From Halocafeteria seosinensis (taxonomy: Eukaryota), in contig LVLI01000353.1 in assembly GCA_001687465.1 (NCBI GenBank), positions 54,202 to 74,201 on the forward strand: 20,000 bases of DNA, given 5' to 3'. The notes under the pieces are model-generated. The model was not told the DNA's origin. It ran no database searches and saw nothing but the letters and a program-made list of their open reading frames with translations. Positions 1 through 20,000 of the stretch are shown in pieces. A program made the translations under genes and the position numbers. Every line of letters starts with the position of its first letter. The first letter of the stretch is position 1.

Positions 1-105
1 TATTGATATATTGATTCGTCCGCTATTCCCCGTGGCACTGATTCCACTTGACAATACAATAGATCCTGAATCTCCGTCTGTACTTTTTCCAGTTCCCAGT
101 GTTAG
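1..105. repeat. Direct repeat L, copy 1 (truncated by left window edge); matches 1255-1359
   Basis: 105 nt match with one mismatch (position 43 t vs 1297 a; Gly GGA vs GGT, synonymous). Offset 1,254 nt = 418 codons. Confidence 0.95.
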
Positions 106-3100
106 TTTTCCAGCATTCCCATCGAAGGAGCGCCCGCTGCTTAAAACTGTACTGCCAGTATCCCCTATTAGTGACGTGTCACCACTTCGATGTCTAACAG
201 CACCAGTTTTTCCAGATGTACTGTGACCGGAAAATACACTCATCGCCCCAGTAGAAGCGTCATCAATAGGAACGTAGATCCAGACAGCACCAGTATCCCC
301 AGTCGCATCACCTCCACCACTCGATATTGTAACACTCCCTCCTTGGTTTACCATAGACGTTCCTGAGCTTATTAACATGTCAGAGCCTACTCCATGCGTT
401 GAATACCCTACTATGAGAGAAATGGAACCTGAGATGTCCCCATCACCGCTTGCAAAGAGAATATCTCCTGATCCACCGCTTCCCAATGCCTCACCTGAGG
501 CTACTGTTAGGCTCCCTGATGTCCCTAGTACTGTGTTTCCCGTCGAAATTGACACCGAGCCAGCATCGCCATTTGTCGCGGTCCCACTCTTCCCGACTAT
601 GTCACCAGTATTCCCCGTTGTTGACGACGATGTCAACAAGGTAACTTTCCCGGTGTCAGCAACATCCGAGATCTTTGTGCTTATGTCTACGTGGCCGCTA
701 CTTCCTTTATTTGTGTGCCCCGTTTCCAATATGATATTCCCACCATTGCCCTCACCAGACTTGCCTACTTCTAGACTGAGACTGCCAGCCGTGCCTTGTG
801 TACTGTCACCAACTTGTATACTCACATATCCACCGCTATCACCCTCTCCACTGCTCAAGATGATATTTCCGGAGTCACCCCCATTTCCATCGCCAGTACC
901 TAACGTGAGTCTCCCACTGCCGCCATGAAAACTGCGACCGCTGCTTAGCATAGCCTCACCAGACTCTCCATGATCGGTGAAGCCACCACGTATTTGTACA
1001 AATCCAGTCGTACCATCGGTAGAGTCACCCGTTAAAATGGACACGGAACCAGTATCTCCGCAGTGTACTGAAGGCACCGTAAATGAGACTCTACCGGAGC
1101 CACCACTGTTGCCACCACCACTGCCTATGAAAATGTCTCCCCCAACATGCTCAGACGAGTCTCCTCCAGCAAGGACAATGCGGGCACCTTCTTTGATAGA
1201 GCTTTGTCCAGCTGCAATGGAGAGTGCCCCGCTAGTGCCTTCAGTGGATTTTTCTATTGATATATTGATTCGTCCGCTATTCCCCGTGGCACTGATACCA
1301 CTTGACAATACAATAGATCCTGAATCTCCGTCTGTACTTTTTCCAGTTCCCAGTGTTAGCTTCCCGCTTTTCCCGTCATTTGTAGATTGTGACTGTAGGA
1401 CAGCAGCTCCCGTAGAACCAAGATTCGCTTTCCCAGTAAGAGCTGCTACAGAACCAGTGGCGGCACCGTTTGATCCAGAAACTAGAGATATGCTTCCACT
1501 GTTGCCTGTTTGGGCAGCCGAAGTAGCAAAATCAATTTGTCCCATTGGCCCACTATACAGTGATATGGTTCCACCAGCGGAAGCCCCAGAGTCCCCTGCC
1601 TCCACAACAATACGCCCGCCTTTCGCAGAATCATTCGCAAGTAGTGATACAGCGCCTCCAGCTCCGTTGGATCCGCCCACAGCTATAATAACATATCCCG
1701 TGTTGCCGCAGCTCCCGTTCGTTTTAATTGTTATGCTTCCAGAAGATTTTTGTGACGCACCTCCGCTCTCTATAGCGATGGACCCACTTGAGGCAGAGTT
1801 AGAGACTCCGGTGAGGACCGATAGATCGCCAGTATCACCAGCGTTTGTGGTGCCTGATCTTATGTACAGAAGTCCACTACTGCCACTATTTGTCAATCCC
1901 GAGAAAGCTGATATAGATCCGGTGTTACCACCTTCGCGAGAAAAGAGAGTTATTTTCCCTGAGCTGGTTTTGGAGGTGCCACTTTCAATACTCACGTCGC
2001 CCCCAAATCCATTGTCCGCATCGCCGGAACGGACGTATACGCTTATTTCCGGGGAAATATTGCCCCTACCGGTTTCGATAGTTACACCACTAGCTGTTGC
2101 TGCTGTAAGTGAGCATCCCGTCCGAATAGTAACACCACCCGATGAGCTCTTTGCACTTCCGCTCTGCAGATATATTTCCCCCGATGGTTCGCAGCTGCCT
2201 TTTCCTGTGAAAAGACTCACTGCTCCTGAGCATCCCTGAGCTTTTCCAGTGAGCATATTAATTTGTCCTGTGTTTCCTCCAGTTCCAGTCGTAGCGGAAA
2301 GGCTCCCTGTGTTCCCTAAAGTGGAAGATCCACTGGCCACCACTATGTCACCTGACGAGCTCGCTACTGAGGTACCAGTTTTAACTTCAACTGAGCCGCT
2401 GTTACTCTTTGCATCCAGCGAAAGAAGGTTCACGTCTCCAGAATTCAAATAAGCATCATTTGCAATAATTGAGATCGACCCAGAAAACATGGATGAAGAC
2501 CCTGTGGAGAACGCAATACCGCCGCTGGCGGTGTTGGCCGTCCCCGTATGAAAGCTGACGTATCCAGAGTCGCCTCCATTGGCGTCCCCTGAAAATGCAT
2601 CCATACTACCGGTCACTTCACCATCATCTGTAAAAGCCGTAATAGAGCCTGTTCGGGCAGTGGTACTTGTACCACTTCGCAACCAAATCAAACCGCTGGC
2701 GACGTCATTGGTCTCCCCAGTCGAGAAGCTCAGTTCACCACTTGTGCGAGCACTACCGCTCCGGATGGTCAATCGTCCCGTGTTCCCACTTCCATCTGAT
2801 GATAACACTTCAAGCACTCCGGTGTTGGTTCCACTGCCTGTTGTGACAGAAATATATCCACCTGGAGATGTTCTAGACGATGTTCCAGAGGAAATCACGA
2901 TGTTTCCTGAATGCAGGTCTGCGTTACCACTATTCATATACAAACTACCTCCTTGGTTTGCGGCTTGCTTGGCCATAAGCGCTATAACACCGCTATTATT
3001 TCCCTTTCCTGAGACGATGCAAATTGTTTGGGTATCTCTCCCTCGTTGAGACACAATATGGATGTCGCCGGTACCAGTTGCTCCGTTGCCACTTTGCAAC

Positions 3101-6100
3101 ACAATGCTTCCGCTATCTTCGCAGCTTGACATTCCGCTCTGTAAAGTAATCGAGCCACTACTGGTATCACTGGCACCAGAAACTAGTTTCAATGCCCCGG
3201 ATTCTGTAGCTGAACAGGCACTAGAAATACTTAAACTTCCGGAGCTGCCGCTGGCACCCCCTCCTGTAGCGATGCTAATTGCCCCGCCAACTGCCGTCGC
3301 GTCTACAGTAGAGCCCCCCCTGATGACCACATCGGCACCGTTTCCTGAATTTGACACACCGAGGACAATTCCAAAGAGAGAATCCACGTCTGAAGCCGAT
3401 TCACCAATAAAAAAGAGTAGGTCTCCCCTAGAAGATGCTGCTGAGCCAGTTATGATTCGCAGCTTTCCCGCATTTTGCTCGGCAGAATTCCCTGTAATAA
3501 TGGAAACTTTACCGGAGCTACTGACTGCATTCGCACTTGATAAAACTAGAGACCCAGATCCAGAACAAGCGTCTCCTGATTGTATGCGCACCGAGCCAGT
3601 AGAGCCACATGCGGTTCCAGACTGGAGCAGGAGAGTGCCGCTATCACCAGTACGAGCTGCCTCCCCGGTGCTAAGTTTAATCAGCCCACCACGTGTTCCA
3701 GAGCCTCCAATTAAAGAAACGCTCCCACTGTTAGTACCAGCTTGACCAGATAAGAACACAAGTCGTCCCGAACACTGAACAGAGTGGCCACTGAACATGT
3801 CCAGCTCACCAGTCACAGAGTGACCACTGCTAGAGGCGATTTGAAATCTCCCGCTTCTCCCTGCTGTAACATCTCCCGTAGCGTACCGGATATCCCCAGA
3901 AGACGAAGATGTTGACGTGCCAGTGAAGAGATTAAACGTGCCAGTGTTGGAGTTCAACGTGGCACGCCCAGTCTTTATGTACAGGTCCCCCGTTACACCG
4001 TCGTCGGTGTCCTCCGTTAGTATTTTTGACCGAATGCTTCGCGAAACCATAACAACGTGCCCTCCTCGCATTTCAGCCGAGCCGGACTCTATTACCAGAG
4101 GGGAAGGTTTACCCTTCGTGGACGCGCCACTGATGATTGAAAGCGGTCCGGAAGCTATCTCAATCCTACCGCTATTGGCACCGGTCGCAAGCCCTGTGGA
4201 AACAATTATTTCCCCACTCCTTCCTTCCTTGGCGTCTCCAGTCAGTGCAACCATTGCACCACTCGTTCCGATCTTACTATTGCCCGTCTCGAGAACGGCA
4301 TCCCCGGTATCTCCTGACACCACCGCTACCCCGGACAACACCAGCATGGCACCGGTGTTCTCCTTGGTAGTGAAGCCACTATCGATCAACACACTGCCCG
4401 AATCGCCTTGTAGGACGTTTGAAGTTATGATGTTGATGCTTCCTGAGCAAGTCGTATCTCCTGTTCCAGAAGAGATAGATACTGGACCGCCGATTTTCGT
4501 CGAAGAACAGCCAGCGCTGATGACGACGTCACCATGGTTAAAAGCCAGACCTTCTCGAACGACAACAGAAATGCTACCAGCACTACCTTCAGTTGATGCA
4601 GCAGAGGACCGTAACAGAATATACCCGGCATTGCCACTTTCCGTTGCTCCTCCAGAGAGTCGTATCCCGCCGGAATCGCCACAGTTGCTACCACCTGTGA
4701 GAAACAGGAGTCTGCCGGATCGTGTTGCGGCGACTCCGGTAAACAAGCTTAGGCTCCCCGAGGAACCATTAGTGGATTCGCCAATGAATAGCTCTACGTG
4801 TCCTGTGTTCCCCATGTTCGCATATCCCGTTTTCATCGTCAATTTCCCGGATCTATGGCTATTTCCAGAGGTGAAAATGGACACAGACGCCCCATCACCC
4901 CCTTCAATGCTGCCTCCACCAGAGATCTTGGTTTCTCCAGAGTCCCCACTGAGCTTCGACGTTCCACTTTGTGCGACAAATCTTCCTCCGTTCCCATCTG
5001 TAGCATCCCCTCCCCGAAGTAAGATGCGTCCGCCATCGCCGGTACTGGTTGAACCCGTTCTAAAGGAGATGAAGCCAGCTGCACCACATTCAACTCTTCC
5101 ACTTGACAACTGAAAAGAACCGCTAAGTGACTTCCCCCCAGATGTCAAGAGGTCAACTCTGCCGGTGTCTCCTTCACTTGACTCTCCCGTCGAAATGGTC
5201 ATCTCGCCACTGTCGAGTTGCGACTTTCCTGAGAACAACACAACCTCACCTGACCTTCCTGAGTTAGATTCACCGCTTCTGAAAGATAACTGTCCTGTAG
5301 CGGCTTGAGTGCTTTCAGCAGACTTGAGGGTCACGGTTCCGGAGACGCCTTTAGAAGTACCCGAATAGAAACCAATCCATCCACCCTCAACGGAGCCACA
5401 GCCTGCGTGGAGAATAATGCATCCGCTGTCCCGCTTGGAGTTTCCAGTCAACATGGAAATACTTCCCATTGTGTTTGAGGATATTATCTTCATTCGCACG
5501 TAGCCGCTAGTTCCTTGTTCTGATGCGCCTGAGTAAAACCACAAGCCTCCTGAATCCTTGTTTGCGTCGCCAGTGCTGAGAGTGACAGAGCCTGAAGACA
5601 TACCACTGCAACCAGTATCCAGCGACACAGATCCTGAGTTTGCAGTCGAGGTGCCGGACAAAATGCTTATACCACCTGTAGAAATGGCACTTGAGCTTCT
5701 GAGTGCGACGTTTCCAGAAGATGTTCCGGCTGTGCCGGTAGTAGTAGAAACGAGTCCCGACGTGCCGCTCCTGGAGGATCCGGTCATCATGGTAATCGTA
5801 CCCGAGCTCTTATTCCCTCGTCCTGTACTAAAAGTGACACTCCCACCAGCAACTTCTCCAAATGATGACAAAGCTCTAATGTCTCCAGAATTGCCTGCGT
5901 TTGATACTCCTGTGCGCAGCACTTGGAAGCCGCTACATTCCACTTCCGCGGTCCCTGTTACAACCTTTACTTGGCCGGAGTCTGAGGTAGCAGCTTCACC
6001 CGTAAAAGTAGCAACACTGCCGGTGTTCATAGATTCTTTAACGCCCGAACGGAAGCTGACTCCACCACTACGTTGGTCTCCCTCCAGTGTTAGAACAAGC

Positions 6101-9100
6101 ACGCTTCCTGTTTGTCCTGATTCTACAGAGCCGCTCCGGAAAGTGATAGTTCCCGAAGAGGCTCCTTCACCAGTACTCACATTTATGTCTCCAGAAGAGT
6201 GACTGCTTTCTCCACTGTTGATTGTCAAGCCACCGGTATCTTGACAATTGCTGCTTCCAGAGGCCAAGAAAACATTTCCAGACCGGTGGCTCGAAGCTCC
6301 AGAACCTAGTTCAAGGTGTCCGCTTGTTGCATCACGGCCGGTGCTCAGTTGTATGTCGCCACTGCGCTTGCTAGCTCTCCCTGTGAAAGCCCGCACTGCC
6401 GACGACCTACATGCGTCTCCACTCACAAACAGGATGTTCCCTGAGTTTCCTTCCACAGCATTCCCCGTTGAAAAACTAATATACCCTGACTTTGCAGTGT
6501 GCATAGAATTGCTTGAGTGAAGGGTGATTTGACCTTCCGCAACGACATTGACTTCACCACCGCGAGTTGACTGCGAACTAGCAGAAAAGACGACAGCACC
6601 AGTTTGTCGGGAAGCATTTCCTGTTATCAGCGAAATGGATCCAGAGTTCCCGAACAAGGTATTGCCTGAGTGAATGAGCACTCTGCCAGATGTTTTGAGC
6701 CCTTGAGCGTTTCCTGTTTCCATCAACACGTTCCCAGAATAGCCGCCGCTATTCCCTGTCGTGACTTCAATCCTCCCAGAATCTATCTGTGAACCACCTG
6801 TCAAAAGTTCAACCTTTCCAGTATTCTTATCTGCAGAGCTCCCGCTTCCGGCTAGGACTGCTCCCGAGTTTTCACTGGAGGACCCTGACATATAGTCCTG
6901 ACTGCCAGTGTTCCCAACTCCAGAGGAAGATGTGCTGGTTAGTATGCTGCCACTGCAAGATCCGGTACCACTTAGCAAGTAGAAACTACCTCCATGAAAA
7001 GTGGAAGAGTGGGATGAGCCACTTCTTATGGCAATGGAGCCACCAACAGCATGTCCTGTTGAAACAACAAGCGAAATTGCGCCTGAATTTCCGGACAGCG
7101 AATCACTAGTCCTAAGCCGCATGGTACCACTGTTTCCCTCGTTAGATGTGCCAGTAACGAGGGTTACCATGCCACTTCGAGAATTACCTATTCCACTGCC
7201 AATAGTGGCACCCCCACTTTTTCCCCGCAAGGACCTTCCGGAACTCAAAACAACTCTGCCGCCGTTTCCCTCCTGAATTGTCCCAGTGTCAATATGGATG
7301 TAACCAGAATTCCCTTTCGGTGTACTTCCCGAGATACCTAGAATGGCTCCAGAATAGGAGTTGCTAGAGGGGCTACGTATATAGGCAGAACCGCTATGGC
7401 ATCCATGCCCAGTAAAGACGGAAACAGCTCCGCCTTCGTTTACAGCAGCTTGTCCTGCACGTACAAGGACATCTCCGCCTGTGGCATGTGATCGTCCGAC
7501 TAAAAGAGACACGGACCCAGTAGAAATGCCTGCTGTGGCGGAATTGAGCAAGATATGACCGGTCGATGCGTCATCAGCGTTCCCGGAAACCAATGCAATG
7601 GCACCACTGGAACTATGCTTAGCATCGCCGGAGGCGAGGAGCACCGCACCACTGTTTCCCTGGGTAGTCTTCCCTGAACCGAGTATCCCATTACCGCTAT
7701 CCCCATCGGAGCACCTGCCAGAACCTATACTTATTGGTCCGGTGTTTCCTTCCGGGGTAATGCCGCTTCTAACTGACATTCTTCCTGTCGACCCCGTCTT
7801 ACTGATGGTCGATGCTATATGGAGGGCTCCGCTGTCACTAGACGACCCCCCTCCACTGGATAGGGATAACGCTCCCCCGATATTGGATACGGCGTCTCCC
7901 GCCTGTATAGTAACGGCACCGCCGTTGCCTTTATTCGAACTTCCCACAGAGAGGGAAATAGGCCCTGAGTTTCCGTGGGTGGATGAGCCGGAGTACAAAA
8001 GCGCGTCTCCACTCATGTCATTCCCATTACCGGAAGCAATGCGGATATTTCCCGAGTTATCACCGTTTCCCGAGTGTATCGTGATCTGACCCGAGTGGCT
8101 CTTACCAGAGGCGCCTGATCGCAGCGTCAACGAACCAGAGCCTCCGCGTTCTGTGTTCCCACTAACAAAAGAAACGAAACCACTGTTGTTATCCTGTAAG
8201 GCAGCACCTGAGGCTACAGTTATCGGTGCGGATCGTGTGAGTGAATTTCCAGAATCTAAGAGAATACAGCCTGAATCCTGCATGGAGTTGCCCGAAACAA
8301 TGGAAACTGAGCCACTGGTTTGAGAATCACTCGTTAACAGCTTCAAATCACCACTGTTTCCATTGCCCGCGTCTCCCGTCGTCAAGCGAGCAGATCCACT
8401 AGAGGTGTTGGTCTTACCGGAACGAATAAGTATGTTTCCTGAAGCCATGTTGGCAGTACCGGTCATTATTGAAGTGCTCCCCGATTCGACATTTCCCGTT
8501 CCAGTGCTCAGGCTTATATGCCCGGAACAATGAAGAGCGCTCCCGGTCTCAAGCCGAAAGACGCCACTGTACTTGTTAGCATCCCCAGAGTATATCACAC
8601 CACGACCACTGTTCTCATTAGAATCACCACTACGGAAGCTGATCACACCAGTGCTACTGCCGGCCTCAGATCCAATTAGCAATTTTCCAGAATTTCCGTC
8701 CGAAACGCCAGAAGCTACTTCGACGAAGCCCGTGTCGCGCAGCTTTGAATTTCCACTATCAATATTCAGTGATCCACTGCACCCATAGTGTGTTGATCCC
8801 GTCACGACAGAGACACTACCACTTTCAAGATTTCCTAACTTCGTTTGAGAAATGAGGAAGCCACTTGCTGCTTCTATGCAGTTCCCTGATTGTATGGTGA
8901 TAGCTCCCGTATCCTGGAACTGAGACGACCCCGTCGACATCGATAGATCGCCCGAATTTGCTCCTGCACCTGAACGAACTTCAAACTTCCCGGTGTAGCC
9001 GGCCTGTGAGCAGCCAGAAATAAGTGACAGTGAGCCACTAGCCATGGTGGCGTCTGCAGAATAAGCAACTATGCCTCCAGTTCCAAGATTACTCTTCGCA

Positions 9101-12100
9101 GTTTTCGCAAGTAGAGAACCCGAGCATTCTAGGCCTGTTCCTGTCAGCCAGGAAATATCTCCCCCATTACCATGGAGAGACTTCCCGGCCTTGATGGTAA
9201 TATAGCCTCCATTTCCGCATGTAGAACGTCCTGCAAGAAGCGACAGTGAACCGCTAGCGTCCCCACGATTGGAAGTCAACGCAATATGACCGCTGGCACC
9301 ATTACTACAGCCAGATCCGGTCCTGAATTCAATATATCCAGTTCTTTCTGCGCCCCTACCAGTTTTGATAGTTATACGTCCACTTTTCCCGTTAGTATCG
9401 CCAGTGTAGACGTCTACTGAGCCGGTCTCCTCATGCAGCGATACAAAACCAGAATGAATATCGACCGCCTTGGAGTGTCCACAAGCGTTCAGTCCGGAAG
9501 CAATTTTGACATGTCCTCCATGCACATTTGAGGGACCACCTTTAATCTGAATTGATCCTCCATAGTCCTGACTGCTTCCGGAAGTAATACTGATACTTCC
9601 GGATTTGCATACGGAAGAACCAGTAGAGACAAGGACGCGGCCTGAATTCGACGTTCCAAGTCCGGTCGTTAGAAGGACGTCATGTGACTTAAAGTCATTC
9701 TGAAATCCAGTGACGACAAGAACGCCACCGCTCAGACCATTTGGTGCTGCCCCACTGGAAAAATCTACTGAGCCAGTATCTGCGCTATTTGAAGACCCCG
9801 AAGCTACGGAAATGGCACCACTGTCACCCGATGGTGTAGGTCCAGTAGAAATGGTGAACGAGCCACTCGTCGTTTTGGCACTTGTCGTAAGCAAATGAGC
9901 ATCACCACTAACAGCAGTTCCTCCTCCTGCTAGGATCTCAATTTTCCCGCTCTCCTTTGCTCCTTCCCCAGAGAAGATGGTGACATCACCTCCATCAGTT
10001 TTTTCAGAAGGTAGAGAATGCAATGAGACTGAACCGGATATGCCGCAATCAGACTCGGAGACGCGCATCACGATGGAGCCGCTTCGTCCGCATTTTGCGG
10101 AGCCTGAGGAGAGCAGAAGGGAACCAGTAGTTCCATCTTTACCGTTACCGCCGCTCAGGCGCACGTCACCTGAGCTACTTCCAGCATCGCCAGAACGGAA
10201 AACGACCATACCTGTATTGCCTTGAGCTGAACTTCCGCTTCTGAAGTCGACGGCACCGCTGCATGAGCTAGCAGTGCTTCCAGTAGCGATAGATATATTC
10301 CCAGAGTGTGATCCTGATTTCCCCGTTGAGGCTGAAACGTATCCGGTTAAACCAGAGACCGCATTCCCTGCACTAATAGAGATCCCCCCACTCCTATCAT
10401 TACTTACACCCCCAGTTATGTAGATAGAGCCCCCACGCAAAGCAGACGGGACTAGCACTGATATCGCACCTCCATTATGCCTCGCAGGCCCAACAGAACT
10501 GACAATCGAACCACTACAAGCACCTGCATTCCCGCTCTGAATAGAAAAGAAGCCGCTGCGTCCAGCTGAGCCAGAGAACATACGTAAAGATCCCGATCCC
10601 CCCGAACTCACCCATCCGGATCGAACAGTCACCGCGCCACTATTCCCCGTCTGACTTGCACCAGTGAGCCAGTCCACGCTTCCACTGTTACCACTAGAGC
10701 CGCCACTTCGAAGTCTTACACTCCCTGTAGAACCAGAATTTTCGTCTCCAGTGCGGATTTCGAGCGTACCGCTCGAGCCATAATTTTGTCCACCAGAACG
10801 CATAACCAGTTTGCCTCCAACATTCCCGTGGCCTCCCAAAATGCTGATGCTACCTCCAATGTTACCGGATCCAATTTCGGCAAATACATGGCCTCCATCT
10901 TTTTCTGCTCGGTAAACAGATAATACTATTTCCCCAGATTTCAAACTAGCATCTCCGGAATGTAGCAGCAGAGGTCCAGTATCCCCTTGGCCAGTAAACC
11001 CGGAACGAATCTCCATCTTGCCGGATTCCATCGCCGCTCCAGTGACAAACGACACGGGACCACTATTCCCGCCGCTGCCACTTGATAACATGATAAGGCC
11101 GGAATTAGCTTCAGCGCTCCCTGATGAAATGGCAATTGATCCTGATTCGTTGCCAAAGGCGGTAAGCATGTTGACTTCACCTGTGCCAGCACCAGACGCA
11201 CCCGTCAGGAGCTCAACACCTCCGCCAGACGCCCCGTTTCCGGAAACGATCATAATAGAACCTGCATTCATGCAGGAAGAGCCCACCTTTAGCTTCATTC
11301 CACCGCTTTGATTCTGAGCCTCTCCAGTGACAAAGATTGCGCTGGCACTCTCTGTGACGCCAGAACCGGTGGCTATCCCAATACCCCCAGAACGCCCCGA
11401 TGGCGAGTCACCCGTTACCAAAGATATCGGACCGCTGTTCATTGCAGAAGAACCAGTAATGTACTTTATATCACCACTTTCGTTTCCAATACCCGAAGAG
11501 AAAGTGAGGCGTCCAGAACGGCTCCTCGAAGCTCCCGTTTTTGTGTTGATGAGTCCGCTGAATGTCCTGCTCTGAGGTGTAACAACTGTTATCCCTTCGT
11601 CGTTATTCTCAGTTCCTCCGAAGAACTCTACACGGGGACCGGTGCTATGAGAAGAACATCCCGCCTCAATGGAGATATTACCACTTGCCCCATCTTCGGA
11701 ACTACCTGTGAGCACGGATATGTGACCAGACATCCGCGAGGCTCCCACTTGAAGTTTTATCCCGCCCGCTACAGTTGCGGCGTCTTCCGTAAGGAACCTT
11801 ACGACCCCAGAGTTGGAATTTCCCTTCCCAGTCCAAAGCTCTACGTTTCCAGAAGAACCCATAGCCGAGGGACCGGTTATCAATTCCATCCTGCCGCTAT
11901 CCGAAGCTGCGTTGGAGCTTGATATACTTATATCACCAGATTGGCACCCCCTACCGCTTTGGACATGCACGAATCCTCCATTTCGTCCACTAGCTGCCTC
12001 CACCGCTAGTGCACCGCCGTTGGATTGTCCCCCGGCCACACCGATAGTAACGGAGCCCGCATTCGACATATCGCTGTTGCCTGTTTGCAACAGAATCGAT

Positions 12101-15100
12101 CCAGAACCACACCCAGATCGCCCACTACTTAAGGCCACTGTTCCTGTAGTCTTCGCAGCTTCCGACCGAAGTGTCACTGTACCAGAACTGCCGCTACAAC
12201 TAGAACCAGAGGAAATCTCGAAAGTACCAGAAGCAGCACCGCTCTCCGACGCAATTTGGACCGACCCCGAAGAGCTACCTATACCACTGAGGAGACTCAA
12301 AGCGCCTCCCTGGAGACAGTTCGAGGCCCCGGCAAAGAAACGTAGGTTAGCCCGAGCAGAGCTAGCGATGAGCGATACATCCCCTCCCATCCCCTCCGTA
12401 GAACCTCTTGACAGTATAACCAACGTCCCGGAATTGCTGCTATGGGACGTCCCTGTATGCACCCTAATGTAGCCACTGTTCGCTCGAAGAGAGCCCGAGC
12501 CCGTCTGAAATAACTGGTTGCCGGTTGATGTTCTCTCAGAACTTCCTGTAACTACTGACATAGCCCCACTTACACCAATTGCTGCGTTGCCTGTGAGCAT
12601 TCTCACAATCCCGGAGCCTCCTTGATTTGCATCTCCACTTTTCAGTTGAAATTTACCTGTTTTACCTGTACTTGTGCCACTAGTTACTAAGCCTACATCC
12701 CCGCTGAGTCCACAAATCGCCGCGCCACTAGTCAGCGCGACAGGAGATGCCCCTTCAAGAACATTGTTAGTCTCAGCTGAAATTTCAACAGACCCTGGTG
12801 TCATTCCCGATCCACTAATAATAGAAATGGAGCCGCTATGCGCATGGGGGGCTGTACCAGACTCTAGAACTAATTTTCCGTCTGCAGTCCCCTTTCCAGC
12901 CTCCATAGTGATGCTTCCTGAATCCAACAGAGCGTCTCCGGAATCTATAAACAAACCACCACCGCCAGTTTGACTCTCGCCCGCCAAAAACGAAATGGAG
13001 CCGGAGGCTCCATTTGTACTACCACCAGACCTCATCAGCATATCACCAGAATTGTTGCCACCGCAACCTGACGACAACTCAACCGATCCGGAGTCTCGAC
13101 CGGCTTTTGCCCCTCTTAATTCAAGAACCCCCCCTTTTTTTCCCCCAGATCCACTGCATATAGAAATTGAGCCGCCTTGTTTCTCAGCGACGCCAATTTG
13201 CATGTGAATACTTCCCGCAATCCTTCTGTCACCAGAAGAAGCAACCAAGGAGACTCCTCCAGCCTCTAGTTCAGCGTCCGCTGTTTCGACAAGAATAATG
13301 CCCGAGTCGTCGCTAGATCTACCCGTCAACAGCCGAAAGCTTCCACTGGATGCTCCGTTTCCTTGTCCCGTCAGAATCGAGACGCTACCTGTGTTACTTG
13401 TCGTCCTCCCGCTCATGAATTTAAGGGCCCCCGTATCTCCAATACTGCTCGAACCACTCCTAATCTCTACTGTGCCTGTCACACCGGAGTTTGTTGACCC
13501 TGTTCCTACGGATACCTTTCCAGAATTTGTTAATCCGACTCCATTTACAGATCCTATGCGAAACTCATCGGACCGTGGGCCACCCAGTAGAAGAATAGTT
13601 CCTCCATTGGCTTGAGAGTCGAGTGTACTCCCGGCGGACAATAGTATGCCTTTTCCGGCAAAAATCACACTTCCAGCGTCGAGATTGCTCGCACCGATGG
13701 ACAGTAGCAAGCATCCACTAACCCCATTTGTCGCGTTACCAGTAGCTAAAGTAATTGTACCACTCGCTGCTGAATTGACTGCTCCTGTTTCAAGTTGTAG
13801 CCTTCCTGTTTGTCCTTTTTCCAGACTTTTCCCAGATTTTATTGAGATTTCTCCGCTACCACCAGTTCCATCGGCATTTGCGGTAAGCATCTGCACGCTT
13901 CCTGAGGGCTGTCCCGTCCCGCTAGTAAGCTCAAGACCGCCGGCAAGCTTCCCGATAGAGTTTCCACCATGAAATACCACGTTACCCGCAACTTCTCCAC
14001 CTCCACCTATTATCGAGATATCACCGGACGAACCATTCTCTGAAGAGCCTGTTGAGTAGAAAATTGAACCGGAAGCTACTTTTGATGATCCTGTTTCAAT
14101 CTGAAGGTGCCCGCTGCTACCCTCTGTCACTGGTCCAGAAGCCAATGTCGCGGACCCGGAATGGCTCATTGCGGTTCCGGAGACAACAATGATACCACCG
14201 CTGTTCAGTGGAGTGTTCCCCGACATTATACGTATGTCACCAGTCTCGTCGGCATCGCCTGTGCTGGCAGCAATGTTACCGGAATGACGGTTCCCATTTG
14301 TAGTCTGAAGCGAGATAAAACCACTACTACTGCAAGCTTCTCCTGATGTAACTTCAATGGCACCTCCAGTACCTAGTGAGGCTGATGAAGCTCCGTAAAC
14401 AATATCTCCTCCGCTCTTCCCAACACTCTCCTTCACAATAAAAGACAGAGATCCCGAGACAGTCTTCCCCGACCCAGTTTGCAAAACTACGCTTCCACTT
14501 TTTTTGGCTGCATTTCCGGAAATTACGGTAATAGAACCAGAGTTTACGTTGCTATTCCCTGAATACATCCTTATTGTACCACTCGACCCCGTAGCTTCGG
14601 AGGTATAATATGACAGAGAACCAGAAGATTCACCTGCTCCAGTTGCTATTGAGAAAGACCCCGAAAGGCCTTCTGGCGACTCTCCGGTGTAACTCTGGAC
14701 GTACCCCGAATTCGCGTTACTACTGCCTGACGTCCGTTGAGAAATTGCCCCTCCGGCGTCACCTGAAATAACTTGAATATTTCCTCCGAAGCCTGCGTTC
14801 GTACCCTCGCCGGCATCAAAAGTGACATCTCCTGCATCGGTATTCCCTATCCCAACAAGAAGGGACATCCCCCCTCCTACTTTTGATTTCAATGTGGTGA
14901 CGGCAATAAATCCAGAGTTGCGTAAAGCGTCATTGCTTTTCATTTCGATGAACCCTGAGCCGCTACTTCCACACCCACTCTCGACAACTAGGGCACCACT
15001 TACTCCTTGGCTATCTCCGGTGAGTAGATCAACTTCCCCCGAAGTCTTCGCAGGAGGGCTACTGATGCTAATAGCACCTCCATGTCCCCTCGTTGACCTC

Positions 15101-18100
15101 CCTGAATATACATGGACACCTCCTGAACGGTTCCCGCTGCTCGTTGTGACATCTATATTCCCTCTATTCAACGCACTACCGGTGTGAATCGATACCGATC
15201 CTGAGTCTAGCTCTGCACTTCCACTTCCCAATTCGGTATTGCCACTTACTTTCCCGCTCCCAGAAAAAAGAGATAGAGCCCCCGAGTTTTGTAAGCTTGT
15301 GCTTGAAAAGAGATTAATTTCGCCTGAAGCAAGAAATGAGGACCCCGATAGGATTGAAATCGGCTGAGAATTGATATGTGCGTTTCCTCCTAACACCGCA
15401 ATAGAGCCAGAATTACCCATATTTTCATCGCCAGTAACAAACTTGAGATTTCCACTCTTGTTGGAAGATCCGCTCCCCAGTACAATATCTCCTGAAGCCG
15501 AACCTCCTCTTCCGGATAAAATTGTTACTTCACCCCCGTAAGAACACGCACTAGCACCGGCACGCAAGAAAATGTTGCCACCAAATAGTGCGTCAGAATT
15601 GGAGGAGCTCAAACTAATACTCCCGCTATCGACCAGCCCGTTCCCCGAATACAGTATGATGCTCCCTGTATCCCCTACCAATCCAGTTTTTCCCGTTTGA
15701 AAATCAAGCGAGCCTGACGTTCCGCTATTCACACTGCCCGTGTTCATCATGACACTGCCAGAGCCAGAATTGCTGGAGCCTGTTTCCATTTCAATGGGAC
15801 CTGAGGTACCCTGAAACACATTACCGGAGGCCACGAAGAGTGCACCGGATCCACCTGTAAGGCTACTACCGGTGGAAAGCTCTAAGTTGCCCGAATTTAC
15901 GCCACCATTAGAAGACAGTAACTGTATGAATCCTCCCTTCCCTGAGTTCATCCGCCCCGCCCGAAGAATACTATCGCCTCCGTTCCCAGAAAGAGAAGAG
16001 CTCCCAGCAACGATTTGTATAGAGCCCCCGTTCGATGCGCTTCCTCCAATAACAGATATTGATCCGGCATTGCTGGTACAATCACCAGTTCCTAAGAAGA
16101 CATGGCCGCTATTACCCAAACCCTGAGAGGTGCCTGTGTCTGCCAAAATGCTTCCTGTGTTAAGAAATGCGTTACCCGATACCAGTGTGATTGAACCTGA
16201 AGACGACGGAGTGCCTGGGCCGCTACTAATGAGAAGATCCCCCGAATGCCCACTCTTTGCGGCACCTGTTTCATAGTTTAGAAATCCGGAGTCTGCTGTT
16301 TGACTAGAGCCGCTTGCAAAGTGCACATTCCCGGACTCCACTCCATTTGAAGAGACTATTGACAAGCTTCCACTCTGGGTAGGAGAAGAGCCTGCTACCA
16401 CGGTAACCCTGCCACCATTGGAGTGAGAAGAGGACCCACTCGTAATCACCAGGGACCCTGCAGCTGCCCTAGAGCCACCGGCAAGCACACTGATTCCATC
16501 GCCGGAGGACTGGTTGCCTACAACGAGAGCTACGGATCCAGATTTTCCCTCAAGTGCCTTTCCAGTTTTAATGGTAAAACTGCCTGAGTTTCGGGCCTCA
16601 GACGAGAACATACTTATTGAACCGCTGCTTCCGCCACTAGATTTACCAGAATGTATACTTATTGCACCAGTTTCGGGATCAGCGGGTGAGAATAAATGAA
16701 TATATCCACTCCTAGTTTCTGCTGGTTTCCCTTCAAATACTATTGCTCCTGTAGTCTTGCCTCCGGACGAAGACCCCGACTTGGCGGACAAGAGGCCACC
16801 AATGGCATTATCGGACTTTCCTACAGCTAAAATCGCCGCACCACTTTGGGTTTGTGCTCTCCCCGTTTTGAAAAGCAACTGACCGGAATTTCCTGCCTTA
16901 GTTTCTCCGGTAAAGACGTAGATAGCTCCACTGTTCAAGCCGTTTCCTGTTGCAAGGGTTAAAATTCCTGAGGACGTTTGGCCGGTTCCGGAAGCAGCAG
17001 TAAGACTTCCTGAAGTGCCAAATTCTCCACTACCACTCACAACTGTAAGACTCCCTGAACAGCCTCTAAGTGTGTCACCAGAAAAAAGTGTAAGCTTCCC
17101 CGAGTTACCGTGTGCTTCTCCGGTTCCAATAGTGGCGCCACCGCTCTCCGTACCTACCGCGCCTCCACTTTGTAGCCGCAGCCAGCCACCACTGCCACAA
17201 ACGGAGCTGCGACCAGATCCTAGCTTTAAGTCTCCACTTCCTGAGTTGACTGAGTGTCCTGTTAACAGTGAAATGGTGCCAGTGTTGGCACACCCAGTTC
17301 CGCTTGTCACTACTAGACTCCCAGACGTAAGCCCGTCACTACCAGTAAGGATGGCCATGTTACCGGAGACGCTTCCTTTTCCCGTGTTGATAATCAAGCT
17401 ACCGCTATTCAAGTTACCCGATCCGCCAATTAAGCTGATGTGACCGCTTCCACCAAAGCTAGATGCTGCAGAAACCGCCAACACCGAACCGCTATCTCCT
17501 TCATTGGTGTCACCACTTCGAAGCTTTATTGCTCCAGAAAGATTTTTTGCAAAGGCTGTCAACAGGGAAAGGCTGCCACCGTTGTATTTGAGAGAGCTCC
17601 CCGAGACTATATCAACGCGACCACTGTCGTCCTCGCTGCCACCGGTGGAGAACAACAGGTTCCCAGCTCTATGGTGTGCCTCGCCAACAAGAATACTAAG
17701 GCCTCCACCCGCTCTGCCGCAACCAGTAATCAAATGTGCAAATCCCGAATCACCGCACACACTGTCTGAGCTTTGGAGCTGGATGCTGCCTGTGCTGAAA
17801 CGTCCGCTACCAGTGTCAACGTTTACATCCCCACTTCTCAGACCGGCCTCACCACTTGCAAGCAAAATGTGTCCACTATCGCCAACATTGGTGCTTCCTG
17901 TGTCGAGGGATATTCCGCCAGTTGTATCTTTAGAGTTCCCTGTTCTAAGACCGAATTCTCCACTGCATCCGTTCACCGAATCGGAGCTTACCAGGATAAC
18001 ATCCCCACTACCGGCTGAGCACGAATACCCACTCAGAATGCTTACGCTACCTCCGTGTCCCTGGTTTACACGTCCAGCAGCTATGCTAATCAAGCCACCA

Positions 18101-20000
18101 TTTCCCTCATTTGATACACCGGCAATCACCGACAATGGTCCGCTAGTAAGAGAAGAGTCCGAAGTGGTAATAAGGAATCCACTGGATGCACCACAGATCG
18201 ATGACCCGGTCTCCAGGTGCAAATTTCCGCTATCTCCGAGCACAACCGTACCGGAAGATATACTAAATGATCCCGATGTACCTTCGACAGAGTGTCCGGT
18301 GTGGGACGCTATAACGCCACTGCCTGTGTTTCCAAAGCTTGTCTTCAAATCCATGGGTCCACTGTCAGATTTGCTTTCTCCAGATAATACACTAAGCCTC
18401 CGAGAGTTGCCCTTCCCTGCAGAGCTCCCTCCTGCAACAAAGACATCCCCTCCATTAGCATTGGCCGTACCAACCGTGATACTAATAGATCCCGAACTCG
18501 TTCCTTGCCCAGTTGATACTAATGCAGATCCCGTGTTCTTGCCATCCCCGGTGAAAATATGCATCAGGCCTGAGTTGCTGGCTGGTCCAGACGAAACTTC
18601 GAGCCGTCCTGTGGATCCGGCAACACTATTTCCACTATGAACGGCTGTGCTGCCGCTGGTACCACTCGTCGCACAACCACTCTTCATAGAGATTGGTCCA
18701 CCATTCCCTTTTGCCCCGGACCCACTTGCCAAAAGCATTATTCCAGAGGTACCGGTTTCAGTAATCCTACCGGTCGAAAACAAGATGTCACCGCTCCTCT
18801 CTGGCGACTCGCCGCTGTTGACGTGGATGAACCCACTCTGCCCGTTACTTGCTCTACCACCAAGAATTTTCACATCTCCAGCATCTCCCGTATGGGTAGC
18901 TCCTCCTATTAATGAAATTGTTCCTGTGCTCCCATGGTTGGAATCTCCGGTAACAAAAACTGAATTTCCAGACATGTTGGTTGAGACAGCCGATGATAGA
19001 ATGTGCAGGTGACCACTGATCCCGTACACAACAGAACAACTAAGCAAGGAAACACTACCAGTGTTTCCTATATCCGTGATCCCCGTTATAATATTGATTC
19101 TTCCACTATCACCCGTTGAGAAGCTCCCTGATAAAAGCGATATACTTCCCGTATCTCCGGTTCTTGAATCTCCTGAGACAATCCGTATACACCCGGTATT
19201 CCCTGGGGTGGATTCAGTGGTGACTGATACACTCCCACTCTGTGCAACACCCTTGCCTCCATAGATCCCAATTCTACCACCATTGTTGTTTGCTGACAAA
19301 GTGTCACCACTTTGAACAAACAATGGCGTTGATTTCCCGTGTCCGGTCGTTCCTCCAAGGACAGAAACACTACCGGTAATCATGCCCGCCTGCTCTACTT
19401 GGAAAACGACTCCCCCGGTACTTAACGAGGCACTGGAACTGCGAATAGATAAAAGCCCAGTGTCTTCTTCGCCAATGCCTGTACCCAATGCAAACATTCC
19501 AGACTCCGCCAAGGCCCCATGCTCAGTTGAGAACACTAAATCGCCAGATCTGCTCCCCTTACCAGTGCTGGCGACCAGCCTGCCGGATGCGCCTTCTGCA
19601 GAACCAGATGTCATCGACAAACCTCCTCCTGTCTGCGGAGCTCTTCCTGCAGAAAGCATAATTGTACCAGCAGACTCCATGGCTGAGAATGATGATACCA
19701 CCGAGACACTACCCGTATCTCCCACATTAACATGCCCTCCATATAAGAGAGCAAAGCCTGAATTGCCATGGATCACAGGAGATGTCTTCAATACCATACT
19801 GCCACTAGATTGGCTGGAGAACGCTGACTCTAACTGTATGTCTCCAGTCTGACCAGTATCGGTGGATCCACTTGCAAGCAAAATGTGTCCACTATCGCCA
19901 ACATTGGTGCTTCCTGTGTCGAGGGATATTCCGCCAGTTGTATCTTTAGAGTTCCCTGTTCTAAGACCGAATTCTCCACTGCATCCGTTCACCGAATCGG
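1..20000 (-). CDS. Internal fragment (>=6,666 aa, partial at both ends) of a giant Gly/Ser/Thr-rich repeat protein, predicted beta-solenoid/beta-helix fibrous protein, probably surface or extracellular
   Basis: Manual translation of the minus frame gives coherent repeats throughout, for example DSVNGCSGEFGLRTGNSKDTTGGISLDTGSTNVGDSGHILLASG (19998 downward), GPISLSVGSSNKGNGGAVTIQAGDAVSNIGGALSLSSGGG (~7965-7845) and GKLTLGTGKSTDGDSGSIVLSSGISATGNSGRINISI (111-1). I found no in-frame tta/cta/tca triplet (minus-strand stop) in the many lines I checked, including most gaps between plus-strand ORFs. The ORF track lists no ORF in this frame, as expected if the frame never closes. All 29 Pro-rich plus-strand ORFs start at position mod 3 = 2, so there is no net frameshift over 20 kb. 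Confidence 0.95.
1255..1359. repeat. Direct repeat L, copy 2; matches 1-105
   Basis: tattgatatattgattcgtccgctattccccgtggc...ttccagttcccagtgttag, identical to 1-105 except one base; encodes LTLGTGKSTDGDSGSIVLSSGISATGNSGRINISI. Confidence 0.95.
7699..7965 (-). repeat. Best-conserved copy of a higher-order ~90 aa cassette (six basic units with VG / GG..AG / GG..SGxG / SG..S-T / SG / GNxG signature)
   Basis: GPISLSVGSSNKGNGGAVTIQAGDAVSNIGGALSLSSGGGSSSDSGALHIASTISKTGSTGRMSVRSGITPEGNTGPISIGSGRCSDGDSG. Similar cassettes occur at ~7260-7520, ~3180-3370, ~4380-4560, ~1020-1200 and ~240-410. Confidence 0.7.
17852..17984. repeat. Direct repeat R, copy 1; matches 19868-20000
   Basis: ccacttgcaagcaaaatgtgtccactatcgcc...gttcaccgaatcgg, 133 nt identical to the last 133 nt of the window. 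Offset 2,016 nt = 672 codons. Confidence 0.95.
19868..20000. repeat. Direct repeat R, copy 2 (truncated by right window edge); matches 17852-17984
   Basis: 133/133 identical by direct comparison; the match continues to the window edge. Confidence 0.95.

Follow-up and report, generated by a model that had tools for sequence, protein, structure and literature searches.

The window, the whole 20,000-nucleotide stretch analysed here, is crossed by a single minus-strand reading frame. Translating the reverse complement of positions 1-19998 gave 6,666 codons with 0 stops, as the sequence-only reading had claimed, against 315, 97, 367, 302 and 383 stops in the other five frames. The frame is open at both window edges, again as claimed, and the part in view corresponds to ~642 kDa of protein. 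The features of the locus are as follows.

1..19998, minus strand: open frame of 6,666 codons, without start or stop in view, holding 454 tandem units
1..1254, minus strand: tandem unit of 1,254 bp (418 codons, in-frame) towards the 3' end of the gene, in an array that continues past the left edge
1255..1377, minus strand: the beginning of the 1,254-bp unit, repeated upstream (residues ~6208-6248 resemble 6626-6666)
15982..16416, minus strand: ten-unit segment used for folding (monomer model, pLDDT 61)
17800..17835, minus strand: tryptic peptide named by the sequence-only reading (residues 722-733), preceded by Arg and usable for proteomics
17852..17984, minus strand: recent in-frame internal duplication, copy 2, 100% identical to copy 1 over 133 nt
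19868..20000, minus strand: the same duplication, copy 1, cut by the right window edge

Base composition predicts ~339 stops in such a frame by chance, and 200 shuffles that kept the composition of each codon position averaged 194 stops, with a minimum of 169. The translated product is rich in Gly, Ser and Thr (G 19.8%, S 19.5%, T 8.5%, with A 6.9%), and no intron interrupts the 20 kb. Overlying it on the plus strand are 11 ORFs (156-420 aa), and antisense plus frame 2, with its 97 stops, is 19.8% Pro, which fits the suggestion of Pro-rich shadow genes on the wrong strand. The minus frame was also correctly reported as missing from the start-to-stop ORF track, but only because both of its ends lie outside the window; the ORF listing holds it as a frame open at both ends. 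No Rfam matches were found in the window.

That the frame is maintained by selection, as had been proposed, is supported by the missing stops and by variants from another sample, of which 40 of 384 are listed. In the single-copy part (2320-4437), 12 of 17 listed variants are silent against 26% silent sites; in the multi-copy part, 8 of 23 are silent, and none of the 40 listed creates a stop. Both edges carry recent exact duplications, which could complicate assembly, and no single contig of the sequencing runs spans the window. Positions 1-123 and 1255-1377 are 93% identical, and the copies of the 133-nt duplication lie 2,016 bp (672 codons) apart. One contig of run X4 runs from 890-1254 into 1-679, carrying the frame past the left edge, and the summed contig depth of run X1 is 175-490 over 1..1254 versus ~55-150 elsewhere, a measure that is not a copy number. 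That the frame arose in assembly, or belongs to a repeat that is non-coding and open by chance, is nonetheless extremely improbable: the units are highly diverged in DNA but stop-free, contigs of run X1 fall in all 30 window bins (119 of the 124 contigs being at least 95% identical), and the variants show the silent bias described above. The data support a real, selected giant coding frame, which by its sequence would encode a repeat-built structural or surface protein.

The 454 tandem units span 13-16 residues (mean 14.65 aa) and follow the consensus S-G-x-[IVL]-x-[LIV]-x-[ST]-G-x-[SAG]-x-x-G, confirming the repeat character read from the letters. Scores above 5 bits were reached by 425 of the 454, versus 12-19 units in five shuffles. 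Neither Pfam nor the literature search, which left most subscription papers outside its reach, yielded a family or publication for this 14-15-residue unit. Sequence searches of the PDB returned no match for one window segment or for relative P0026, and PHROGs returned none for two window segments or for P0002-P0005. There are 8 cysteines that have another one 12-17 residues off, against 10.9 expected; this shows no pairing pattern, and a disulfide ladder was rejected. Across the 6,666 residues in view, with both termini outside the window, we found no signal peptide, anchor or strongly hydrophobic segment (maximum Kyte-Doolittle 19-mer 1.54).

An alignment-based AlphaFold2 monomer of the ten-unit segment placed one beta-strand in each unit and formed a single-chain beta-solenoid; a single-sequence fold reached pLDDT 37 and was discarded. 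Top VIA matches of the monomer were single-chain solenoids at Z <=8.0, the best being a SufB/D-like helix (Z 8.0, rmsd 2.7 over 137 residues), and Foldseek searches with this model returned no hit at E<=0.001 from either PDB or the viral models, a result uninformative on fold novelty. The model invites a different architecture, a giant extracellular single-chain beta-solenoid with one 14-15-residue coil per unit, folding processively without intertwining and serving as an adhesin or coat filament, along the lines of the ryegrass ice-binding beta-roll or trimeric-adhesin heads. Autocorrelation of the protein, which peaks at lag 7 besides lags 14-15, fits such coils, and there are weak matches to grass antifreeze beta-rolls: the repeat profile hit PDB sequences only at E>=0.088 (3ult, E 0.088), and LbR_Ice_bind (PF21300) scored 21.4 bits, below its cut-off of 30, in one of four protein quarters and was rejected as an assignment. 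These ice-binding matches look composition-driven, however, the model is of modest confidence with a monomer the only form possible in it, and the repeat adjoins ICA domains and tailspike caps, both of which belong to trimers. We consider the single-chain solenoid unlikely, if still a serious contender.

Searches with the repeat recovered 65 proteins with 30-42% identity at E<=0.001. The repeat occurs in short phage-like fibre proteins and in a partly eukaryote-labelled group that carries, inside the repeats, a Peptidase_S74/ICA trimer chaperone, a self-cutting folding domain of the phage-tail type. Peptidase_S74 was present in 7 of 67 scanned proteins, plus P0001, and in 7 of the 8 ICA-bearing relatives (6 distinct ICA regions) repeats flank the domain on both sides; most ICA-bearing relatives look like gene fragments. 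The internal-ICA G/S-repeat fibre family comprises P0001, P0014, P0017, P0019, P0039, P0045 and P0064, in whose members the window's unit profile detects 11-93 units. An S-D-x-R-x-K motif followed by a coiled-coil-like helix is kept in 5 of the 6 distinct internal ICAs; P0014, labelled as an archaeal MAG, is without the catalytic Ser. The P0017 ICA matches the MyRF ICA structure 7dc3 (E 3e-6), in which this Ser-Lys pair is the catalytic dyad and trimerization is required (PMC8326128). In a tree, the six internal ICAs fall on one side of a branch (99/97) opposite 44 prokaryotic and viral ICAs; P0019, whose ICA region matches that of P0001 exactly, was for this reason excluded here and from the classifier below. 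Labels assign P0017 to Aphanomyces euteiches and P0001 and P0019 to EukProt, and atlas clusters of the relatives read 'Eukaryota, commonest Oomycota', based on few records. The window's own six frames contain no ICA domain by profile search, both gene ends lying outside it. Giant relatives were absent among proteins of 4,613-5,000 aa, the range reached, which makes this a weak negative.

Another candidate is a viral gene, from a giant virus, jumbo phage or endogenous viral element, that encodes an extremely long virion fibre in place of a fibre of the host surface. Many phage-type relatives are complete, with 400-1,500 aa, fibre-like caps and 11-42 units; K1-lyase_C occurs in 2 of 67 scanned relatives, and another matches tail fiber gp9 over a short stretch. 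One cluster of relatives sits on contigs up to 375 kb, the P0001 ICA region matches PHROG tail fibres, and 20 kb without an intron would suit a virus. Against this, a leave-one-out classifier on units told all 8 ICA-type proteins apart from all 24 phage-type ones and gave the window +1.3 bits per unit (59% of 371 units), on the ICA side and opposite all 24. The window's score falls short of all ICA-type members (+2.4 to +5.1, versus -1.5 to -7.8 for phage-type), the groups were assigned by eye, the window itself served to train the unit finder, and P0030, an unrelated 7-mer repeat protein rejected as a relative, scored +6.7. N-glycosylation sequons (N-x-S/T) occur in the window at 0.48 of a register-keeping shuffle (0/300), with control motifs at 0.84-1.11, a deficit that is at most an indirect hint of secretion; the ratio is 1.03 in phage-type relatives, and the deficit is weaker in eukaryote-type relatives (0.81, 18/300). 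Close-relative searches with a 500-aa window segment found nothing in viral_contigs, genome_contigs or the phage collection, and the P0002 locus was not found in viral_contigs. Among 111 ICA loci from prokaryotes or viruses, no locus carried a run of more than 2 units. We therefore regard a viral origin as quite improbable.

Among the closest described systems is the TLP-12 glycofibril, a triple beta-helix by cryo-EM, whose about 150 candidates (Fig. S5) include alveolate proteins of about 20,000 aa with an ICA, such as Amoebophrya A0A8J1ZHD7 (19,853 aa) (10.1101/2025.09.30.679562). Like those, the window encodes a giant protein, probably from a protist, with hundreds of short Gly/Ser-rich repeats and an ICA link, here via relatives; the triple beta-helix, shown for the TLP-12 fibril, is only proposed for ours. 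The TLP-12 unit is a fixed 12-mer, GSxxSx7, whereas ours varies over 13-16 aa; its candidate bears a C-terminal ICA rather than an internal one, and its candidates are alveolate whereas our labelled relatives are oomycete and EukProt entries. Membership of the dodecapeptide type was rejected: none of 453 unit intervals is 12 aa, lag-12 identity is 0.104 versus 0.109 expected, and none of the 25 GSxxS occurrences lies at spacing 12. The earlier label 'uncharacterised' holds for the 14-15-residue family in the literature searched, but not for giant protist repeat proteins with an ICA, which have been described.

The relatives, although not the window itself, which is without an ICA in view, share with MYRF a eukaryotic chain-internal ICA, a Ser-Lys dyad and a trimer coiled coil (7dc3; PMC8326128). 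MYRF, however, frees a transcription factor and its stalk is short, whereas the relatives' ICA has fibre repeats on either side. S74 phage tail fibres and tailspikes, and Bdellovibrio MAT fibres, likewise have a repetitive shaft, and the window's repeat is found in fibre-like proteins bearing tailspike-type caps. Phage-type relatives, however, reach only ~1,500 aa, whereas the window's gene is at least 4 times longer and avoids sequons, and most ICAs of the prokaryotic-viral set are terminal, 30 of 44 lying no more than 120 aa from where the ORF ends.

On balance, we favour, with moderate confidence, the reading that the window is the middle of a giant intron-free coding stretch and probably the shaft of a secreted triple-beta-helix surface fibre of a single-celled eukaryote. 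Three chains would enter the secretory pathway, and a predicted S74/ICA outside the window, placed as inside the relatives, would trimerize through its coiled coil and zip the upstream repeats into an intertwined beta-helix. Two alternating aliphatic residues per unit may pack the core, near-invariant glycines may form the corners, and Ser/Thr-rich loops would face outward as possible O-glycan carriers. The Ser-Lys dyad would then cut the chain, releasing the fibre from the downstream repeats, and in-frame duplications (418 and 672 codons) could adjust fibre length; an adhesive or spacer role is conceivable. The part in view would measure roughly 0.2-0.45 micrometres. A rise of 4.8 A per unit corresponds to about 0.2 micrometres, and the 9.6 A per repeat reported for TLP-12 to about 0.44 micrometres (10.1101/2025.09.30.679562). 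The longest repeat run ahead of an internal ICA in the relatives is 22 units (33 precede the terminal ICA of P0043), and the folding of at least 450 units by one chaperone is therefore an extrapolation.

An ICA-family trimeric filament could instead reside inside the cell, or in an extrusome or scale-forming vesicle, as an ejectable thread, spine or skeleton rather than a lasting surface adhesin. Nothing in view determines location, the cysteines are unpaired by pattern, and the sequon deficit is compatible with any lumenal route. We nevertheless judge this placement improbable: the first part of P0015 is Cys-rich and PSI-like (Pfam PSI at 20.8 bits, under its cut-off), and the described analogues, TLP-12, phage fibres and Bdellovibrio MAT fibres, are extracellular, the last being surface adhesive trimers (PMC10769870).

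Gene callers and length-capped protein databases fragment or lose giant repeat genes like this one, and a protist surface-fibre class would therefore be nearly invisible. Electron microscopy has long shown fine filaments on cells of the stramenopile type, such as the terminal or lateral filaments of flagellar hairs. That the window represents an undescribed, widespread protist fibre class, a self-cutting polyprotein of far more than 7,000 residues with an internal phage-type chaperone, a triple beta-helix of up to ~0.5 micrometre, duplication-set length and identity with such stramenopile filaments, is a doubtful proposition as a whole. The system offers a test of whether one internal chaperone folds and cuts hundreds of nanometres of fibre. 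The 14-15-residue unit connects phage-like fibres with eukaryotic proteins and provides a concrete sequence for matching orphan fibrils from cryo-EM of environmental samples. This unit, a likely eukaryotic host and the link to S74/ICA-chaperoned trimeric fibres go beyond the sequence-only reading.

Translating the reverse complement of 1-19998 gave 6,666 codons without a single stop, bearing out the sequence-only reading that one uninterrupted minus-strand frame fills the window. The remaining five frames hold 97-383 stops, base composition predicts ~339, and 200 codon-position-preserving shuffles averaged 194 (minimum 169). That reading had also described the frame as missing from the ORF track and masked by short Pro-rich calls on the wrong strand, and both points held: the frame escapes a start-to-stop track because it is open at both window edges, and 11 plus-strand ORFs of 156-420 aa overlap it, the antisense frame (97 stops) being 19.8% Pro. 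Rfam gave 0 matches in the window. The window is a genuine fragment of a giant gene, and we regard an artefact as highly improbable.

The entire chain in view consists of one Gly/Ser-rich repeat type (454 units). Above 5 bits we found 425 of these units, compared with 12-19 in residue shuffles (n = 5); 442 of 453 intervals measure 13-16 residues (mean 14.65, maximum 30), with autocorrelation maxima at lags 7, 14-15 and 29-30. The consensus is S59-G95-x-[IVL]85-x-[LIV]76-x-[ST]80-G79-x-[SAG]81-x-x-G. Ten-unit blocks share 27-36% identity, and the units are old and diverged. None of the four protein quarters matched a Pfam family above cut-off, and the 6,666 residues in view contain neither a hydrophobic anchor nor an ICA domain (a self-cleaving, Peptidase_S74-type intramolecular trimer chaperone with a Ser-Lys dyad). 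Short irregular stretches break the repeat at ~3990-4115 and ~13540-13600 (coordinates by eye), and 8 of the 453 intervals span 24-30 aa; such stretches may be kinks or hinges of a fibre.

No close relative of the window protein appeared in the protein sets searched, one of which covers proteins of ≤5,000 residues, so that complete giant relatives cannot appear there. Searches of GTDB genomes, IMG/VR and GenBank phages with a 500-aa window segment yielded no relative. The best relatives (P0001, P0002-P0005 and 65 representatives) are 27-42% identical and split into two groups: full-length proteins of 400-1,500 aa that carry non-repeat caps, called phage-type by their appearance, and fragments filled with repeats. 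Among 67 relatives scanned, two of the phage-type proteins carry a K1-lyase C-terminal domain and two have weak T7-fibre matches; seven of the 67 carry Peptidase_S74, which is also present in P0001.

Several complete proteins of 600-1,050 aa (P0002, P0003, P0011, P0016, P0021, P0033, P0035 and P0070) carry the window's repeat and share an N-terminus and a post-repeat segment. Members scanned had no Pfam match, P0002 and P0003 had no PHROG match, and one cluster lies on contigs of up to 375 kb; this is possibly an unnamed jumbo-phage fibre family. P0015 and P0025 share a Cys-rich N-terminal region (~190 and ~80 aa) right before the first repeat, which may form the family's N-terminal cap; in P0015 it gives a weak PSI match. 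In P0004, probably a chimeric gene call, an unrelated protein with a signal-peptide-like start directly continues from the repeat.

Repeats flank the ICA on both sides in 7 of 8 ICA-bearing relatives, which comprise six distinct ICA regions; five of the six keep the dyad motif S-D-x-R-x-K. The P0017 ICA matches the structure of the MyRF ICA, in which, according to excerpts of PMC8326128, the equivalent Ser and Lys are required for self-cleavage and a downstream coiled coil drives trimerisation. In a tree with 44 bacterial and viral ICAs (those of 111 loci passing a length filter; P0019 left out), the six formed one side of a 99/97 branch, and runs of more than two consecutive units occurred in 0 of the 111 loci. 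Source labels of ICA-type relatives were as follows.

P0017: Aphanomyces euteiches
P0001 and P0019: EukProt
P0014: archaeal MAG, 3.5-kb contig, possibly mis-binned

Further ICA-type relatives come from metagenomes. Atlas clusters suggest eukaryotes, most often oomycetes (very few records), and for the ICA segment viruses as well. Over its C-terminal ~200 aa another relative, P0051, has an ICA-like region, strongly diverged and seemingly at the chain end, plus a coiled coil; Pfam did not detect the ICA-like region, a long branch in the ICA tree.

In leave-one-out trials, a per-unit classifier told all 8 ICA-type proteins apart from all 24 phage-type ones. The window scored +1.3 bits per unit, on the ICA side yet under every ICA-type member, on a scale that is no family test (one unrelated repeat protein also scored positive). 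We consider a viral fibre quite unlikely. The window contains 25 N-x-S/T sequons, where shuffles that preserve register give 54.6 ± 5.5 (0 of 500). On regular units the ratio is 0.48, compared with 0.84-1.11 for control motifs, 1.03 for phage-type and 0.81 for eukaryote-type relatives. From this deficit we infer that the protein passes the endoplasmic reticulum under selection to avoid N-glycan sites.

We lean towards a secreted three-chain fibre as the best explanation; an internal or extrusome filament seems unlikely to us. Three chains would be secreted, an ICA lying beyond the window would nucleate a triple beta-helix across the repeats, and its Ser-Lys dyad would then cleave the chain, leaving a stiff fibre with a Ser/Thr coat and a length of at least 0.2-0.45 micrometres (454 units × 4.8 or 9.6 Å). 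The fold is proposed from the co-occurrence of the repeat with ICA domains and tailspike caps, not from a model. Modelled as a monomer from 30 aligned internal blocks (pLDDT 61), the repeat has one strand in each unit, and the model's best structural matches, at a commonplace level (Z ≤8.0), are single-chain solenoids. This favours such a solenoid for the window repeats, but the same repeat adjoins ICA domains and tailspike caps, making it a minority prospect in our view.

For the three-chain fibre, the closest described system is TLP-12, a glycofibril whose cryo-EM structure is a triple beta-helix built of 12-mers and whose Amoebophrya candidates reach ~20,000 aa and carry an ICA at the C-terminus (portions of 10.1101/2025.09.30.679562). 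The window fails the TLP-12 12-mer motif, so its protein would work like TLP-12 without being a member. MYRF is a precedent for an internal ICA, and Bdellovibrio MAT fibres for a surface adhesin (PMC10769870, in part). Size is no record, since titin is listed at ~40,000 aa (10.1101/2023.11.21.568195, in part). A literature search did not find the 14-15-mer repeat family described. We regard the gene as a variant within a known class, ICA-chaperoned repeat fibres, worth pursuing because the repeat lacks a solved structure and protein databases miss the family.

The stretch is present in four sequencing runs of a single study. All 30 bins contain contigs of one run, X1; 119 of these 124 contigs reach ≥95% identity, and none spans the window. 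Two recent in-frame duplications, each cut by one window edge, were found.

133 nt, 100% identity, spacing 2,016 bp
123 nt, 93% identity, spacing 1,254 bp

In a second run, X4, one contig runs 890-1254 and then 1-679, which puts another 1,254-bp unit outside the window on its left. Over this tandem part the X1 contig depths sum to 175 and 490, versus ~55-150 elsewhere, values that are not a copy number. Among the 40 variants listed, out of 384 rows, none creates a stop. Silent changes account for 12 of 17 in the single-copy part, against 26% silent sites, and for 8 of 23 in the multi-copy part. Two indel events were listed.

10311-10313: compensated one-base pair, one X1 contig
3473: 2-base loss, in an X4 contig with a depth of 3.6, possibly an error

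In the tandem part (window 1-1377), 15 of 23 variants listed change an amino acid (a small, filtered sample), unlike in the single-copy part; selection on the recent copies could be relaxed or diversifying. At 867 one X1 contig departs from the window sequence over 255 letters. Read by hand, the 30-letter consensus of this contig is open in the gene frame and fits the repeat, which suggests an additional diverged copy or paralogue.
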